Assembly (NCBI RefSeq): GCF_002395745.1
Contig: NZ_DGUN01000027.1
Location: 19,958-83,957, forward strand
Length of the DNA: 64,000 nucleotides
Source: Fibrobacter sp. UBA4309
Lineage (GTDB): Bacteria; Fibrobacterota; Fibrobacteria; Fibrobacterales; Fibrobacteraceae
Direction of reading: 5' to 3'
This document shows, one piece after another, positions 3,040 to 61,783 of the stretch. The notes under the pieces were generated by a model. That model was given only the letters and a program-made list of their open reading frames with translations, was not told the DNA's origin and did no database searches. The position numbers and the translations under genes were made by a program. The first letter of the stretch is position 1. The number at the start of each line of letters is the position of its first letter.

Positions 3040-4110
3040 ATGAAGTTGGATGTGCTTGTTGCGACTGCGCTTGCTTTCGCGGTCGGTTCTTTTGCTGGAG
3101 ATACTATGAATCCTTCGGTTATGGAAAATTTGAAGTTTCTGGGACGCTGGGATCATAGGACTTCGGGGTCTTGTGCCAGTGCACCTAATGCCCTGGTCAG
3201 TTTTAATGCGGTGACAAAGTCGGTGACTTTCGATTTGGAAGGATATTCCCGTTGGCGATTCGATGCCGACGGCAAACCGCTGATGTATTTCCAGACGTCT
3301 GGCCGCACGACGAAGAAACTGGGTGCCGCAGGTGACGGCAAGGTGCATTCCTACAGGTTGATCAAGATCAGTGAAAGCAACCCCGGCGAAGTCTGTGTCC
3401 GCAATATCGCTCTGGACCCCTCGGGCAAGTTCGCCCCGAAACCCGCCCCTTCGAACCGCCGCATTGAATTTATCGGGGATTCCTTCACGGTCGGTTTCGG
3501 CGACGAAGGCACGAACATGGATCCACCGGAAATGGAATTTGACAAGACGGACGCTTCCAAGAGCTACGCGTTCTTGGTTGCCGATGGGTACAAGGCGGAT
3601 TTCCAGGTCAACGCCGTGAGCGGCCGCGGCCTTGTCCGCAACTATGCGAATATCGCTCCGGGCTGGAATCTTTCAAAACTGTACGATTATACGGTTGCCG
3701 GCTCTGCCTCTATCGAAGCGAACCCGGCCGTGTGGGATTTGAACAAATTCCATCCACAGGTCATAGTCTTGTTTATGGGGATAAACGATTTCCAGGGAGA
3801 TCCCCCCTATGCGGACAGACGAATTTTCAAGATGGCCTATGCCAAGTTTATGAATAAACTTCGTGAAGCGCATCCTGGAGTGAAATTCCTCCTGCTTTCG
3901 ACCAAAATATGGCCTAATGACGATTTGACCCCGACAATTCAGGAAATTTACGACGAAGAAATTGCCCAGGGACACAGGGATCTGGAATTTAAGGTTCTCC
4001 AGACTGAAAATGTGGGCCTTCTTGGGCACCCCGATGTGAGGGCTCAGCAAGAAATGGCCAACATAATTAGGCCCATTGTAGGCCGTCTCGCAGGGTGGCT
4101 CTCACGATAA
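3040..4110 (+). CDS. SGNH/GDSL carbohydrate esterase, CE2-like
   Basis: Signal peptide, N-terminal beta domain, and blocks FIGDSFTVG, AVSGRG, GIND, GHP. Confidence 0.8.
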   Translation: MKLDVLVATALAFAVGSFAGDTMNPSVMENLKFLGRWDHRTSGSCASAPNALVSFNAVTKSVTFDLEGYSRWRFDADGKPLMYFQTSGRTTKKLGAAGDGKVHSYRLIKISESNPGEVCVRNIALDPSGKFAPKPAPSNRRIEFIGDSFTVGFGDEGTNMDPPEMEFDKTDASKSYAFLVADGYKADFQVNAVSGRGLVRNYANIAPGWNLSKLYDYTVAGSASIEANPAVWDLNKFHPQVIVLFMGINDFQGDPPYADRRIFKMAYAKFMNKLREAHPGVKFLLLSTKIWPNDDLTPTIQEIYDEEIAQGHRDLEFKVLQTENVGLLGHPDVRAQQEMANIIRPIVGRLAGWLSR

Positions 4111-4153
4111 AGTTCCTTTTTTGTATATTTTTCTGCAAAGCTAGGATATCACC

Positions 4154-5479
4154 ATGTCTCAGATAATGGAAAAAATCTACGCCCTGTTCAGGATGAACAT
4201 CCTAATCTTTGTGTTGCTGGCCGCAACGGTTATAGCCCTTTTTGCGTACCAGAACGGTCTAGACGATATCGAGTTCCTGAACCTTTCCGATTACCCGTAC
4301 GTGATAGCCGAGTCCGATTCTGTTGACGGGGGTACTTCCGCCATTGCTCTGGAACGTACGGATTCTTCGATTATCGTGGATTACGAATTGCGCGAAGGCT
4401 ATGCTTACCCGTATGCCGGCGTCAAGATTTTCTTGGGAGATGGCAAGGTCCGCGGCAAGGACCTTTCCCATTACGACAGTATTTTTGTGTGGGTGAAGCC
4501 GAGAGGCGAGGGAACCGTCCGCCTGTACATGCGCGGTTATGATTCCTCTTTCTACCGCCAGGACGACGAAACTTCGCTGAAGTTTAACGAAGTGGAATTC
4601 TTCCCGCTCGAAGAAACCTATCCGGCAGTGTTTGTTCCGCAGGAATTCCGCGTGGCTTCCTGGTGGGTCGCCCAGAACGAGATCAACGTGCACAAGGCGC
4701 GTGTCGATCTTTCCAACATCCCGCTTATCGAAATCCAGACGGGTACGAACGCCCCGTTGGGCTATGGCACCTTGGAAATTAGGGGACTCTGCTTCAAGGG
4801 CAAGAAAATCGCGAAGGTGGACCTCGTTACGATTCTCGTCTCGGTCTGGTTCGTGACATTCCTTATCATCCTGGTCATCCGCTTCTTTGACTACAGCCGC
4901 GAACGCGTGGCCAACAAGCGCAAGCAGGAAGAACTCGAGAAGAACCTCGCCGCCCTGCAGATCGAGAAGAGCGAATACGAGAAGTCCAGCAAGGAAGACC
5001 CGCTTACCGGCTGCCTCAACCGCGCCGGCTTCAGCAGCATCCTGCTGCGCGAACAGGAAAACTTGAGCAAGAACGGTTGCCCGGTTTCGTTCGTGATGCT
5101 CGATATCGACCATTTCAAGGAAGTGAACGACACGTACGGACACAGCGTCGGCGACGAAGTCCTCGTGAACCTCACCAGGCTTATTCGTGACAAGATTCGT
5201 AACACCGATGCGCTCGTGCGCTGGGGTGGCGAAGAGTTCGTGATTCTCTGCGGCGACACGCCGATTCAGAATGCGCAGTTCCTCGCCGAAAAGCTCCGCG
5301 TGGCGATCGAGGGTGCAACGCTTATCAAGCAGCAGCAGGTGACCTGCTCCTTCGGTATAGCCGAAATGATTCCGGGCGAAGACCCGAAGAAACTGTTCGA
5401 ACGCGCAGACAAGGCCCTCTACTCCGCCAAGGAAGGTGGACGTAACCGCGTGGTCAGCGCGATGTTTAAGCGCCGTTAA
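4154..5479 (+). CDS. Membrane diguanylate cyclase with a periplasmic CBM11/CIA30-like domain
   Basis: TM, beta-sandwich (DLSHYDSIFVWVK), TM, coiled coil, DPLTG...RNTD...RWGGEEF. Confidence 0.88.
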   Translation: MSQIMEKIYALFRMNILIFVLLAATVIALFAYQNGLDDIEFLNLSDYPYVIAESDSVDGGTSAIALERTDSSIIVDYELREGYAYPYAGVKIFLGDGKVRGKDLSHYDSIFVWVKPRGEGTVRLYMRGYDSSFYRQDDETSLKFNEVEFFPLEETYPAVFVPQEFRVASWWVAQNEINVHKARVDLSNIPLIEIQTGTNAPLGYGTLEIRGLCFKGKKIAKVDLVTILVSVWFVTFLIILVIRFFDYSRERVANKRKQEELEKNLAALQIEKSEYEKSSKEDPLTGCLNRAGFSSILLREQENLSKNGCPVSFVMLDIDHFKEVNDTYGHSVGDEVLVNLTRLIRDKIRNTDALVRWGGEEFVILCGDTPIQNAQFLAEKLRVAIEGATLIKQQQVTCSFGIAEMIPGEDPKKLFERADKALYSAKEGGRNRVVSAMFKRR

Positions 5480-23824: not shown

Positions 23825-24582
23825 TGCGTTTGAGAGTTAATAGTTCTGAGTTACTAGTTACTAGAGATAACACTGGTTGTCATTGCGAGGCGACGCCGAA
23901 GCAATCTCTTTCGTCTTTCGTCTTTCGTCTTTCGTCTATAGTTTTGCTGTTGTCCGCAGCGGCCTTTGCCGCCCCGAAGTCGGCGAGCGCCTACTACAGC
24001 GATGCGGCCTTCCAGTACATCGAAAACCGCCTGCCTTCTGCCGAAATCACCTGCAACGAGGGCCTGCAATACTATCCGAACGACCAGAAGTTGCAAATGC
24101 TCCTTGACCGCATCAAGGAAGCCAAGGACGAGCAGAAGAACGAGAACAAGAAGAACGACAAGAACCAGGATAACAACCAGGACCAGAATCAGGATCAGAA
24201 CCAAGATCAGAATCAGGACCAGAATAAGGACCAGCAGAACCAGGACCAGAACGGCGATGGCAATTCCAGCGGGTCCGAGAGTTCTTCGAGCCAGGGCGAT
24301 GACCAAAACCAGAATCAGAATGGCGGTGGCCAGTCCAGCAGCAGCCAGGGCAGTGAAAGTTCCGACAGCAATGGCGGGCAGCAGCCCGAGCCGCAACCCG
24401 AACAACCGCAGGAAAATTCCAGCGACAGCCAGGGCGAGGATCCCCAGGAACAGCCCGCGCAAATGGGCGAGATGACTCCTGAGGAAGCCGCGCAGCTCCT
24501 GAAGGATTTCGACGAGCAGAACGGCGAACGCAAGCCCTGGAAACCTATCCGCGGGCAGGCTAGGCCGGCCAAAGACTGGTAA
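23824..24582 (+). CDS. BatC-like exported protein with a Q/N/D-rich linker; N-terminus partly encoded by repeat DNA
   Basis: TGATG coupling, (QDQN)n tract at about 24160-24250, C-terminal MTPEEAAQLL...KDW typical of BatB/C tails. Confidence 0.7.
   Translation: MRLRVNSSELLVTRDNTGCHCEATPKQSLSSFVFRLSSIVLLLSAAAFAAPKSASAYYSDAAFQYIENRLPSAEITCNEGLQYYPNDQKLQMLLDRIKEAKDEQKNENKKNDKNQDNNQDQNQDQNQDQNQDQNKDQQNQDQNGDGNSSGSESSSSQGDDQNQNQNGGGQSSSSQGSESSDSNGGQQPEPQPEQPQENSSDSQGEDPQEQPAQMGEMTPEEAAQLLKDFDEQNGERKPWKPIRGQARPAKDW
23834..23936 (+). repeat. Intragenic composite: AGTT heptamers, REP-like GTCATTGCGAG..GAAGCAATC, and (TTTCGTC)4
   Basis: Read directly: heptamers 23834-23866, hairpin element 23879-23908, four perfect TTTCGTC at 23909-23936. 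Confidence 0.8.
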
Positions 24583-24797
24583 GGCGAGCGCCGCAGAAAA
24601 ATGCTTGCATTTTTCTATGGCTGAGCCGCTAAGTCTTGCGCGAAGCGCAACGACTGGTAAGGGTATCAAGCGGGAGTCCACTGGTGGGCTCACATTTGAT
24701 GCCCGCAAGGTCTTGCGCTCGAAGAGCGCAATGATTGGTAAGCCGAGCGTCGCGCGAAATCGACCTCAGTATGTCATCCCCGACCTGGTCGGGGATC
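24574..24797. repeat. Composite multi-hairpin intergenic element
   Basis: Three GAYTGGTAAG copies, two TTGCGC(TC)-GAA-(GA)GCGCAA hairpins, AGAAAAATGC-TT-GCATTTTTCT, and GTCATCCCCGACCTGGTCGGGGATC. Confidence 0.8.
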
Positions 24798-31190: not shown

Positions 31191-31544
31191 GTGATTATGA
31201 ATCTTGATGAAGAACGTATCCGTGAACTCCAGCGCAAGGACAAGGAACACGATGCCCGCCTGGATATGCAGAAGGAAAAGGACTACGAACACGATGTCCG
31301 CATAGACGCCCTTTATTCCAAGGGCCGTGAACAGGATTTCAAGATCAAGGCGCAGGCCGCCAAGGATGCGGAACACGACTTCCGCTTGAATTCCGTGGAC
31401 TCCGTAAACGAACTGCAGGACGACGAACTGCACCGCCAGTCCGAAAAGGACCGTGAACATGACGCTCGCCTTGCGAAGCTGGAACAGCTATGTGCCGACC
31501 TGGCTGCCCGCGTAGAAGCCCTGGAATCTCAATTGAAGAAGTAG
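31191..31544 (+). CDS. Small coiled-coil protein with six 14-aa repeats
   Basis: Periodic KDxEHDxR[LI] units. Start is GTG 31191 or ATG 31197. Confidence 0.7.
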   Translation: MIMNLDEERIRELQRKDKEHDARLDMQKEKDYEHDVRIDALYSKGREQDFKIKAQAAKDAEHDFRLNSVDSVNELQDDELHRQSEKDREHDARLAKLEQLCADLAARVEALESQLKK

Positions 31545-31549
31545 GCGCG

Positions 31550-33526
31550 ATGTCGCAGGCTATTCGCAACATAGCGATTCTCGCACACGTTGATGCCGGA
31601 AAGACGACTCTTTCCGAACGCATATTGTTTGCGGCAGGCGAAGTGCGTAGGCCGGGCAAGGTTGAAGAAGGCCTTGCCACCATGGACTACATGCCCGAAG
31701 AAAAGGAACGCGGCATTACGATCGAAAGTGGTGTTGCCCATTTTGAATGGAAGGACACGTGGTTCAATTTTATCGATACGCCGGGGCATGTGGACTTTGG
31801 TGCCGAGGTGGATATGGCGCTCACGGCCGTGGAAGGAGCCGTTCTCGTGGTGAGTGCCGCGAGTGGCGTGGAAACCCAGACGGTCGCCGCGTTCCGCAAG
31901 TTGCGCGAAGCGGGAGTTCCTACGATCCTGTTCGTGAACAAGCTTGACAATCCAGATTACGTTCTCGACGATACGCTCATCAATATCGAGGAACAGCTCG
32001 GCGTGCGCCCGGTGCTCATGACGCTCCCGCAGTTCGAGGGCGGCAAGATGTCGGCGGTGCTCGACGTATTGAGCCAGAGCCGTCTTGTCCATTCCGAATC
32101 GGGCGAGGAAACCGTTGACGAAGACTGGAATGTTGAAGACGGTTGGGACGGTTCCCGTGAACTCAAGAAGCACTATGCCGAGGCGTGCGAATTTGCCAGC
32201 AACTTTGACGACGAAATCTTGAAAAACGCGATGGACGGAAAACCGGTCGCGCCCAAGATTCTGCTGCGCGGATTAAGGAAGCTCGTGAAGAGCGACGAGT
32301 ACGCGCTTTGCTATGCGGGTTCCGCGCTCGAAGGGTTCGGCGTGCGCAGCCTCATCACCGCGCTTTCGTTCTTCTTGCCCGAGGTTCCCAGGTTCGGCAT
32401 CAACGAGCTTGGCCAGGTGATTCGCTTGCGGCACTTCAAGGGCGTTGGCGAGATTTCCCTTTTCCGCAGCCATACCGACATGGAACGCAAGGAATGGCCC
32501 GCGGGTTTCGAGTTCTCGCGACTCAAGGCAAACCTGCTTTTGCCGGTAGACGAGATTCGCGCTGGTGATATTTACGCGATGCGCACTCCGTTCGAGACAG
32601 AACTTGGACAGATTATTTATTTAGATGGACGGTGTCATCCTGAGCGAAGCGTAGCGGAGTCGAAGGATCCAGACCCGCTGCACCCTGACACCTCCATCCG
32701 AGACAACTACCATCCTCTTCTCCAGACGCGTGTGGAATGCCTTGGTTCCGACGACTACCACCATGTCGAAAAGAGCCTCGCGACGCTTAGCCGTATGGAC
32801 CCGAGTTTCCGCGTGCAGAAGGACGATGGCGGTTTCTGGTACTTGCATACCGTGGGCGAGGTTCAGCTAGAAGTCCTGCTTGCCCGCTTAAAGCGCGAAT
32901 TCGGTTGCGAAGTGAAGGCCGGCAGTCCGGAAGTGCGCTGGCAGGAACGCCTCTGCCGCAATGTGGGCCCGGTCGAAAATACATTCCAGCTCGGGCCGCA
33001 CAAGATTTCGATAAAGCTTTCGGCGATGCCGCTCGAAGGTGACGCGCATGACATCCGCTTGTCCGCGGAATTTCTGGAAACCGCTCCCCGCGAGATTCTG
33101 GCAGGCGTGCGTTCGGCTCTCCTGGAATCAACCGAAGTGGGAATTTTGGGTAAGGGCCCGCTTGTGGGTGTGTGCTTTGAAGTCCGCGAGTTCACATGGA
33201 CCGAAGGCGCTCTGCCGCCGATGATCAAGAAGGCGTGCGCCGATGCCGTGACCAAGCTGATTAAGCCCGCCGATGTACAACTCTACGAGCCCATCATGGA
33301 ACTTTCTCTGGAATGTCCGGTGAATTTTGCAGGGCTCGTGACTGGCGACATTCAGGCCCGCGACGGCAAGGTGAAGGAAATTGGCGGTGACGGCAAGACG
33401 CACTTTTTGAAGGCAGACATCCCGCTCCGCAAAATTTTTGGTTACGCCACAGGCGTGCGTAGCATCAGCAAAGGCACTGCGCTTTATAGTATGAAGCTGC
33501 TCGGCTACCGCCACGCGACAGTTTGA
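31550..33526 (+). CDS. Divergent EF-G-like translational GTPase (EF-G II / RPP-like paralog)
   Basis: AHVDAGKTT, EKERGITI, DTPGH, NKLD, domain III DPSF, domain V YEPIM...GY. Domains II and IV are reduced. Confidence 0.85.
   Translation: MSQAIRNIAILAHVDAGKTTLSERILFAAGEVRRPGKVEEGLATMDYMPEEKERGITIESGVAHFEWKDTWFNFIDTPGHVDFGAEVDMALTAVEGAVLVVSAASGVETQTVAAFRKLREAGVPTILFVNKLDNPDYVLDDTLINIEEQLGVRPVLMTLPQFEGGKMSAVLDVLSQSRLVHSESGEETVDEDWNVEDGWDGSRELKKHYAEACEFASNFDDEILKNAMDGKPVAPKILLRGLRKLVKSDEYALCYAGSALEGFGVRSLITALSFFLPEVPRFGINELGQVIRLRHFKGVGEISLFRSHTDMERKEWPAGFEFSRLKANLLLPVDEIRAGDIYAMRTPFETELGQIIYLDGRCHPERSVAESKDPDPLHPDTSIRDNYHPLLQTRVECLGSDDYHHVEKSLATLSRMDPSFRVQKDDGGFWYLHTVGEVQLEVLLARLKREFGCEVKAGSPEVRWQERLCRNVGPVENTFQLGPHKISIKLSAMPLEGDAHDIRLSAEFLETAPREILAGVRSALLESTEVGILGKGPLVGVCFEVREFTWTEGALPPMIKKACADAVTKLIKPADVQLYEPIMELSLECPVNFAGLVTGDIQARDGKVKEIGGDGKTHFLKADIPLRKIFGYATGVRSISKGTALYSMKLLGYRHATV
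32634..32670 (+). repeat. REP-like hairpin element in frame within the GTPase gene
   Basis: GTCATCCTGAGCGAAGCGTAGCGGAGTCGAAGGATCC, read in frame as CHPERSVAESKDP. Confidence 0.8.
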
Positions 33527-34220: not shown

Positions 34221-35111
34221 TTACATTCTTGCGGCGCGGGCTCTTCGCCTAAAGTGCTCGATAAGCGGAGCGACCGTTTCCTTGAAGTCGTCGTGCGTCT
34301 CGATGCGTACGAAGTCGATGGACATGCGCTGGAACAGCTCCTTGGTCGCCTTGCCCTGACGCTTTGCCTCGCGGGCGAACGCTTCGCGGAAGGCCGCATC
34401 GCCTGTATCGATCAGGAGCGTCTCGCCGGTTTCGGGGTCTTCAAGTTCCACGAGGCCTGCGGGCGGGAGTTCCATTTCTCGCGGGTCCACCACGGAGACC
34501 GCAAGCACGTCGTGGCGCTTGCGGAGAATCTTGAAGGCGTTTTCGAAACCTTCGTCCAAGAAGTCGCTCATCACCACGACGACGGCACGACGATTCAGAA
34601 TCTTGCCGGCGTACTCGAGCGCCACCTGCGTGTTCGTGCCGTGGTGCTGCGGCTTGAAGTAAAGGATTTCGCGGATAAGCCGCAGCACGTGCTTGCGGCC
34701 TTTTTCGGGCGGTATGAACAGCTCGACCTGGTCGGTGTAGATGAGCAGGCCCACCTTGTCGTTGTTCTTGATGGCGGCGAAGGCGAGCAGCGCGGTAAGC
34801 GTCGCCATGACCTCTCCCTTCATCTGCTTGCCGGAACCGAATTCCGAACTGCTGGACGCGTCGACCATCAAGAGCATGGTCATCTCGCGTTCTTCGATAA
34901 ACTTCTTCACATACGGCGTGCCCGTTCGTGCGGTCACGTTCCAGTCGATGGTACGCACGTCGTCGCCCGGCATGTACTCGCGGACTTCGCTGAATTCCAT
35001 ACCGTTCCCCTTGAAGGAACTGTGGTAGGCGCCGGTCATCACGGTATCGAGCGTGCCGCGAACGCTGAGTTCGATGCGGCTGACGGTCTTTAGAACTTCT
35101 TTATCAAGCAT
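34221..35111 (-). CDS. DUF58 protein (MoxR/RavA-associated, vWA-like)
   Basis: GNGMEFSEVREYMPGDDVRTIDWNVTAR, VDASSS, DKVGL, SDF. ATG 35111 preferred. Confidence 0.93.
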   Translation of the reverse strand: MLDKEVLKTVSRIELSVRGTLDTVMTGAYHSSFKGNGMEFSEVREYMPGDDVRTIDWNVTARTGTPYVKKFIEEREMTMLLMVDASSSSEFGSGKQMKGEVMATLTALLAFAAIKNNDKVGLLIYTDQVELFIPPEKGRKHVLRLIREILYFKPQHHGTNTQVALEYAGKILNRRAVVVVMSDFLDEGFENAFKILRKRHDVLAVSVVDPREMELPPAGLVELEDPETGETLLIDTGDAAFREAFAREAKRQGKATKELFQRMSIDFVRIETHDDFKETVAPLIEHFRRRARAARM

Positions 35112-35227
35112 CTTGGTATCTCTTTTCACCGAGAATATACAAAATTCGCGATGGAAAATCCAAGAGAATGCTAGATGGCGGCTCATGGGCCGCCATGACG
35201 ATTGTCCTTGTGGGCCGCCATGACGAT

Positions 35228-44732: not shown

Positions 44733-44855
44733 TCTACCGCCTACTGTCTACTAACCACTGTTTACTTAACCACTTTAACAAGAGTGATGGATCCTCGGCC
44801 TTTGGCCAAGGATGACACTGCCAATTAAACACACTTCACATTGCGACGGAGTCGC
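44733..44855. repeat. Heptamer run, REP-like element and GGA-triloop mini-hairpin between convergent genes
   Basis: YYACT heptamers 44733-44774, minus-strand GTCATCCTTGGCCAAAGGCCGAGGATCC at 44789-44816, GCGAC-GGA-GTCGC at 44843-44855. Confidence 0.8.
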
Positions 44856-61716: not shown

Positions 61717-61783
61717 GTCATCCTTGGCCTGTCATCCTCCTCGCTTCACTCGGAGGATGACTCGGTAATCGCGGCGTAGCCGC
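61717..61783. repeat. REP-like elements and a GTA-triloop mini-hairpin between convergent genes
   Basis: GTCATCCTTGGCC at 61717, GTCATCCTCC/GGAGGATGAC at 61731-61761, GCGGC-GTA-GCCGC at 61771-61783. Confidence 0.8.

Follow-up and report, generated by a model that had tools for sequence, protein, structure and literature searches.

A probable translated copy of a dispersed hairpin repeat in the domain II-III linker of an EF-G-like GTPase of Fibrobacter

The Rickettsia palindromic repeat RPE-1, which Ogata et al. are said to have described in 2000, reportedly lies in frame in many unrelated functional genes, at positions that the protein fold tolerates and in frames free of stop codons. It is roughly 100-150 bp long, contributes 30-50 amino acids, and its host is an obligate intracellular alphaproteobacterium; we know of no partner enzyme for it. 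We analyzed a stretch of 64,000 nucleotides from Fibrobacter sp. UBA4309 (contig NZ_DGUN01000027.1, positions 19,958 to 83,957 of the forward strand; hereafter the window, with its own numbering), in which an original prediction had placed a small mobile palindrome in frame in the linker between domains II and III of a translational GTPase, creating new peptide sequence as the Rickettsia elements do. Sequence, open reading frame (ORF) and Pfam matches bear this placement out: the 37-mer GTCATCCTGAGCGAAGCGTAGCGGAGTCGAAGGATCC lies at 32634-32670 (+), letter-for-letter as first described, and is read in frame as CHPERSVAESKDP (amino acids 382-394 of ORF 31490..33526) just before domain III. Our preferred reading, to which we give a probability of roughly 0.85, is that the segment is a translated copy of a dispersed, oriented hairpin repeat of the class of the CGTC-tagged repetitive extragenic palindromes (REPs) and Ssn-related motifs (SRMs).

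CGTC-tagged REPs have an unpaired CGTC head (often TGTC), a stem that starts with a complementary A-T pair and a CCA tail, and lack a dedicated transposase (Di Nocera, De Gregorio and Rocco, 2013, PMC3733652). The superfamily takes in RPE-4 and RPE-6 of Rickettsia conorii and dRS3 of Neisseria, and in-frame or intragenic copies have already been described in several phyla outside Rickettsia; five phyla are listed for these repeats, Fibrobacterota is not among them, and Fibrobacter is unmentioned (PMC3733652). The predicted step into a different phylum therefore stands as an extension to Fibrobacterota, not as a first case. The Fibrobacter family shares with these REPs the (C/T)GTC head, the AT-first stem, the CCA-like tail, the many subfamilies per genome, the lack of a dedicated transposase, and copies that lie wholly inside housekeeping ORFs, including one for a pseudouridine synthase. 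The start of the stem agrees with that of the class in the arms ATCCT...AGGAT and the variant ATTCT/AGAAT, and is less typical in ACCCT/AGGGT. In contrast to the 8-9-bp stem and 4-5-nt loop of CGTC REPs, the subfamily to which the 37-mer belongs (the focal subfamily) measures 25-55 nt and combines a 5-bp outer stem with GAG/CGA boxes of tandem G-A mismatches and a second, variable hairpin, whereas the Fibrobacter subfamilies ATGGCGGGC, ATTCCGGGC and ATCCCCGCG do fit the published stem and loop sizes. Because RPE-4 and RPE-6 are filed in the CGTC superfamily, whose features the Fibrobacter family shows, the resemblance to the Rickettsia elements is closer than analogy. As with RPE-1, a repeat extends a functional gene without breaking its frame and is missing from orthologues (ten genes in all show in-frame copies), and the insert is predicted to lie in a loop between two domains; RPE-1 is, however, much longer than the focal unit.

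A second point of comparison is offered by the Ssn nucleases. The 94-aa GIY-YIG protein SsnA binds NTS hairpins (CGTCATTCCCGCGMAVGCGGGAATCYRG) as single-stranded DNA only and cuts a few bases upstream; in Neisseria, cleavage is governed by the three bases before the palindrome and binding chiefly by the C after it, and ssn genes are typically bracketed by their own motifs (Chenal et al., 2025, PMC11893778). The nucleases of such pairs are single-domain GIY-YIG proteins of about 90-150 aa (CDD cd10448). The Fibrobacter repeats are likewise oriented hairpins, with GTC ahead of the palindrome and C directly behind it in the focal copy and in nearly all others, and related units number in the hundreds, for instance TGTCATCCCCGCGAAGGCGGGGATC here and the NTS unit CGTCATTCCCGCGMAVGCGGGAATC. 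Both systems place a gene for a 94-aa single-domain GIY-YIG protein between inverted copies, the Fibrobacter protein being a putative nuclease. The text of the Ssn paper holds no discussion of translated intragenic copies or of Fibrobacter (PMC11893778). GTAG REPs and REPINs with their RAYT genes are similar in being short palindromes with an unpaired tetranucleotide head, and in the small nuclease gene flanked by its own repeats, but the head is GTAG instead of (C/T)GTC and the flanked gene encodes an HUH (Y1) enzyme instead of a GIY-YIG one. The focal unit is shorter than a typical miniature inverted-repeat transposable element, and the arrangement of inverted copies on the two sides of the GIY-YIG gene is reminiscent of an insertion sequence.

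The host gene (31550..33526, +) encodes a divergent paralogue of translation elongation factor G (EF-G). Its ORF is open from 31490 (31490..33526, 678 aa) with a likely start at M21 (31550), and orthologues align to the protein from residue ~20. Pfam assigns GTP_EFTU to residues 24-297, EFG_III to 409-478 and EFG_C to 598-675; as EFG_III begins at residue 409, the insert lies directly before domain III. NCBIfam matches of the EF-G type all fall far under their cut-offs, and a canonical-looking second EF-G elsewhere in the genome is 27% identical to the host protein. The focal copy, of 37-46 bases, adds about 15 amino acids to a hypervariable linker, R-CHPERSVAESKDP-DPLHPDT (residues 381-401; 32630..32692, +), which orthologue alignments and AlphaFold place between the conserved ...GQIIYLDG and SIRDNY.... 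An AlphaFold2 model built from a 24-sequence alignment gave confident domains, with a mean predicted local distance difference test (pLDDT) of 82 and a predicted template modelling score (pTM) of 0.70. Mapped onto this model, as the original prediction proposed, the insert (model residues 362-374) is predicted to be a disordered loop at the domain II/III junction, because pLDDT falls below 50 at residues 366-379 and no secondary structure is present at 362-382. The linker that holds it is surface-exposed and structurally unconstrained.

Together with a 3' extension conserved in the family, the repeat unit spans 32633..32677 (+) and consists of the T-GTC head, the ATCCT/AGGAT outer stem, the GAG...CGA mismatch boxes, a post-stem C and the tail CAGACCCG. 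In the family listing the unpaired GTC at 32634..32636, preceded by T, corresponds to the TGTC variant of CGTC. The 5' arm ATCCT (32637..32641) pairs with AGGAT at 32664-32668, compensatory variants ATTCT/AGAAT and ACCCT/AGGGT being found elsewhere, and this 3' arm with the conserved C after the palindrome occupies 32664..32669. The outer stem thus has 5 bp (ATCCT/AGGAT) and the inner stem 2 bp. The 3' extension GGATC(C/T)AGACCCG is common to the focal copy and the copies C37:54507, C50:38554 and C53(-):63 (contig and position). Of the three sense frames, the focal copy is free of stops only in the one that is used, because frame 3 is shut by the invariant TGA of CCTGAG and frame 1 by a TAG. 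A search of 32300-33000 against Rfam at E <= 10 returned two chance-level matches only, and the segment is therefore no known RNA family. A hammerhead-like or K-turn reading of CUGAG...CGAAG was dropped on reasoning only, the core being off the hammerhead consensus.

Comparison with 101 orthologues (Fibrobacter spp., mostly from rumen metagenome-assembled genomes; numbered L) gave the predicted result of an insertion or deletion at this point. In other Fibrobacterales families, F. intestinalis, Hallerella and cyanobacteria (L086, L089, L090, L092, L094-96, L024-30) a few residues separate ...DG from S-I-R-D...PLLQTRVE, and the F. succinogenes-like group has 8 to about 70 unrelated residues at the same spot. 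Conservation of the segment at protein level in distant orthologues that lack the repeat, named beforehand as the finding that would speak against an insertion, was looked for and was not found. At least eight differing repeat-derived contents of the linker are seen across species. The focal subfamily recurs in L099 and L057 with other inner hairpins and in another frame (VILSGMPQGMESKDL), and in L064 at another junction; short CTGAG...CGAAGG units are present in L081/L100 and L015/L080/L101/L102. Units of the type GTCATTGCGAGCCGAAGGCGAAGCAATC are intact in L040 and L016/21/22/23 and decayed in L093/L032/L039, those of the type GTCATCCTGGA occur in three to five copies in L020/62/66/74, and L017 has a PFDKLR-type composite. 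Other linkers hold heptamer arrays, (GAGAGAC)n in L007, L038, L003 and L031 and (GAATTCG)n in L006, L009 and L011. These arrays are translated as ERREARDERRE... or NSEFGVRNSE, and their number of units varies between close relatives (L035 vs L038). In a gene tree computed without the linker columns, the sister of the window's gene is L093 (93-95% identity; Shimodaira-Hasegawa-like approximate likelihood ratio test, SH-aLRT, 99), in which the focal element is absent and a decayed ATTGC-type unit is present. Both the insert and its junctions recur in RUG14062 (L019/L088), an independent assembly. As an observation apart, the orthologue L094 (CAVKGV010000029.1, labelled Alistipes onderdonkii) is near-identical to Hallerella L095 and groups with Fibrobacterales, which suggests that the Alistipes record was misbinned or mislabelled.

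The genome is a metagenome-assembled draft of 2.88 Mb in 82 contigs (numbered C) and is 96% complete. The boxes GTCA-NN-CTGAG...CGAAG-NN-T occur at 49 sites in these 2.88 Mb, where our own estimate of the expectation is well under one. The two NN dinucleotides are complementary at 46 of the 49 sites (TC/GA 36, TT/AA 6, CC/GG 4), and this complementarity, including the double changes TT/AA and CC/GG, establishes the family as real. Taken alone, enrichment of the two-box pattern within the window is suggestive only (3 observed, 0.43 expected; a count of 3 was reached by 1 of 100 shuffles). The consensus of the family, (C/T)GTC-AYYCT-GAG...CGA-AGRRT-C-CA, describes about 46-49 genome copies, both stems of which vary in compensatory fashion; in the long form, GAGCGRAG-[hairpin]-CGRAGTCGAAG, 11 different inner stems are found and pairing is kept in each. 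The base preceding GTC is T in 34/49 and C in 15/49, and the tail after the stem is CCA in 25/49 (the focal copy included), CTA in 13/49 and CTC in 5/49. Sister subfamilies with the same head, AT-first stem and tail (CGTCATGGCGGGCTTGACCCGCCATCCTA, CGTCATTCCGGGCTTGACCCGGAATCCTA, TGTCATCCCCGCGAAGGCGGGGATCCTC and others) contribute about 150 extra copies on many contigs.

Most family copies (about 70%) lie outside ORFs, and copies are found in both orientations and in differing frames. A codon-usage score placed about 14 of 46 in frame within real genes, i.e., about 30%, a count from which the calls C20:82911 and C34:17814 were left out as they resemble antisense ORFs; this intragenic share is high compared with the published CGTC families. 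Only stop-free frames are used; family-wide, the TGA of CCTGAG always closes one sense frame and that of GGATGAC one antisense frame. Pfam domains lie on either side of the in-frame copies in genes for a topoisomerase, glutamyl-tRNA reductase, porphobilinogen deaminase, a CobA/HemD fusion (four copies), a pseudouridine synthase, RsmB, an ABC ATPase and RNase HII, and a further copy is found in the N-terminal region of a TonB-dependent receptor. Six of these copies, each flanked by Pfam domains, lie in one haem-synthesis cluster (C20, minus strand, ~37.2-40.3 kb in reverse-strand coordinates), where they encode CHSERSAKHEVEES (hemA-like), RHPEECSDEGS (hemC-like) and CHPESKAKDP, CHPESKTKDP and, twice, VILSGERSSESKDL (cobA/hemD-like). 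Peptides predicted from in-frame copies also include CHPERSVAESK and VILSGERSSESK. The topoisomerase copy equals the focal copy except for a single indel, and the 3' extension is common to both. This copy (C37, ~54507) stands between duplicated peptides, ETKDDRRKTK(E/G)G...KETKDDRRKTKGK, that enclose about 40 aa of repeat-derived sequence; the duplication could be a long one made on insertion or an array of the heptamer type. The predicted parallel with the Rickettsia elements, a palindrome that creates new peptide sequence, is supported by translation of the family in about a dozen other genes, and the repeat is presumably mobile.

Two small GIY-YIG genes are present in the genome, encoding proteins of 94 aa on C81 and about 100-130 aa on C13 (Pfam GIY-YIG, 8e-17 and 5e-12), with UPF0213 proteins as their nearest PDB matches. 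At the C81 gene (C81:16613-16990) 10 nt separate the end of a plus-oriented copy of the focal subfamily from the ATG, and the stop marks the beginning of an inverted copy; the C13 gene (about 3810-4260) is bracketed by the short NTS-like units GTCATGCCCGCC... and GTCTTCCCCGACTTGGTCGGGGAC. A 78%-identical homologue, annotated 'GIY-YIG nuclease family protein [Fibrobacter sp.]', occupies another chromosomal site, between RNase R-like and RgpF-like genes, and is bracketed by inverted focal-subfamily copies in eight contigs. A 62%-identical homologue from Bacteroidales is flanked by short GTCATTCTGAG...CGAAGAATC units. Taken together, these loci show that the CTGAG...CGAAG signature travels with this nuclease clade. 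A RAYT or Y1 transposase was rejected as the partner: no gene for the Y1_Tnp domain (PF01797) was found in the 96%-complete genome by a search that gave matches in control genomes. Judged from its gene and surroundings, the 94-aa GIY-YIG protein is the likely partner enzyme of the focal subfamily.

Because inverted copies of the focal subfamily flank a GIY-YIG gene here and in other Fibrobacter, the repeat may be the recognition hairpin of a small, Ssn-like single-strand DNA nuclease. Copies would spread by a route that needs single-stranded DNA or recombination, and within genes they would survive only where they leave the frame open and the protein can accommodate a loop. The insert peptide is most likely without function.

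Several observations weigh against the interpretation of the segment as a translated hairpin repeat. The focal copy is a weak hairpin, with a stability not above that of shuffled sequences as RNA (z = -0.89 and +0.1) or as DNA (-3 kcal/mol, z = +0.87, nearest-neighbour energies), so that the predicted term palindrome holds by membership of the family and does not hold by the stability of this copy. The element is also off the strict SRM pattern HGTCWY N(0-2) YYVSBRH N(0-5) WNVSBRG N(0-2) RNCYNB, a search pattern that was written for 8-9-bp stems (PMC11893778), and this pattern is only about 2-fold enriched in the genome (34 matches vs 16-17 in simulated genomes). In RUG14062 the conserved box GAGCGAAG is changed to GAGAGGAG with Arg coding kept, and the DNA motif is therefore not strictly maintained within the gene. 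Finally, comparison with close relatives failed to define a clean empty site or a target duplication, since the linker is altogether different from one relative to the next, the sister genome included.

The translated repeat may have come to this lineage by homologous exchange and not by fresh insertion. The whole linker allele, repeat included, would then derive from another Fibrobacter lineage, with the primary insertion elsewhere, which we regard as possible though not the likelier route. The orthologue L087 (RUG14497) shares the 5' junction (GATGGNCRGT joined to GTCATCCTGAGC) and the inner GTAGCGGAGTCGAAGG with the window's gene, and its repeat encloses a further unit of 52 nt. The two genes are not sisters, though, and a tree that joins them in one clade is rejected (difference in log likelihood, delta lnL, 151; approximately unbiased test, p-AU, 2.5e-5). 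A second linker allele (ILKVTPEG...) is likewise dispersed across the tree (p-AU 3e-4). The groups so tested were, however, named after a tree had been seen, and L001 and L087 are unlike at their 3' junctions, so that parallel insertion at one favoured spot is also conceivable. Trees of gene segments conflict within the N-terminal half, within the C-terminal half and across the linker, and exchange among Fibrobacter lineages is therefore pervasive; such exchange bears only on the route of arrival and leaves the nature of the segment unchanged. The linker was rejected as a special recombination breakpoint, since this conflict is found everywhere in the gene: delta lnL per nt across the linker (1.16 and 0.80) is not above that in the C-terminal half (0.87 and 1.03), in a comparison that is relative only, the segments being short and each tree fitted to its own data.

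This last result also counts against the view that the hairpin persists at the domain boundary because it serves some role itself, as an mRNA structure that slows the ribosome or as a DNA site for recombination breakpoints. Many species have some hairpin-forming unit at the same interdomain position, and NTS sites in Neisseria shorten the homology of incoming DNA (PMC11893778), but shuffled sequences fold as well as the focal copy does, heptamer arrays or plain short linkers take the place of such a unit in several species, and the outgroups are without any insert, so we consider such a function highly unlikely. That the peptide is instead an old functional part of the protein, with the DNA copies similar by chance or derived from the gene, is hardly credible and is already contradicted by the orthologue alignment. 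The peptide is identical in the two assemblies, the sole differing codon (CGA/AGG at window positions 32645-32650, both Arg, with RUG14062 as the other assembly) being synonymous, although a single codon is too little to call selection; against this, the peptide is absent from the sister genome and all outgroups, the region is predicted to be disordered, most of the 46-49 copies are intergenic, with either orientation and more than one frame represented, and the family brackets a nuclease gene. A misjoining of the repeat into the gene during metagenome assembly would be conceivable in a draft of 82 contigs, as repeats are prone to misassembly, but it is next to impossible here, given that the frame is open over 678 codons and that RUG14062 independently holds the same insert and junctions. 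A bolder proposal, which we think improbable, is that the translated hairpins of Fibrobacter are working sites at domain boundaries, at which the cognate nuclease would trim incoming or replicating DNA so that genes are rebuilt domain by domain. If true, such domain-by-domain exchange would explain why the linker has been re-colonised at least eight times.

Further units of the superfamily lie elsewhere in the window. The GTCATCC...GGATC units that the original prediction had related to the 37-mer were recovered by motif scan and family listing at 24773..24797 (+), an ATCCCC-type unit that runs into a stretch of T and resembles a terminator hairpin, and at 44790..44816 (-), the unit GTCATCCTTGGCCAAAGGCCGAGGATC. 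The GTCATCC heads at 61717 and 61731 were likewise found, and belong to a composite at 61717..61761 (+) in which a truncated head, GTCATCCTTGGCC, precedes a full hairpin, GTCATCCTCCTCGCTTCACTCGGAGGATGAC, a type that recurs on at least 4 other contigs. The genome family listing adds the ATTGC-type unit GTCATTGCGAGGCGACGCCGAAGCAATC at 23879..23906 (+; C22 + 43835) and one and a half intergenic units of the type CGTCATGGCGGCCC... at 35174..35225 (-). The latter are directly upstream of a DUF58-like gene (34221..35186) whose likely start is the ATG at 35111, and the long ORF call from 35186 probably runs through the repeat. Units are also nested: a ~52-nt hairpin element stands after the GAGC of one CTGAG...CGAAG unit, and another unit encloses one of the CTGGAG...CGATAG type (linker of L087/RUG14497, C45:20749, C80:52003). 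To judge from these cases, the interior of the hairpin seems to be a favoured landing place for other units.

The kind of event described here is already in print. New are the phylum, the long composite subfamily and the very high translated share, together with a repeatedly re-colonised linker and the direct pairing of the focal subfamily with an Ssn-like gene. The finding joins two literatures that, in the texts compared here, do not cite each other, that on in-frame coding palindromes (RPE and CGTC REPs) and that on the motifs of Ssn nucleases. For Ssn enzymology, the Fibrobacter pair supplies a longer, composite candidate for a recognition hairpin, and for annotation, peptides such as CHPER..., VILSE... 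and DPST...AQDD are to be read as repeat-derived loops and not as conserved motifs. For Fibrobacter itself, it means that translated repeats of the REP type reach the Fibrobacterota, and do so at an unusually high rate, with about a third of the subfamily translated in core genes and six copies in a single haem-synthesis cluster.

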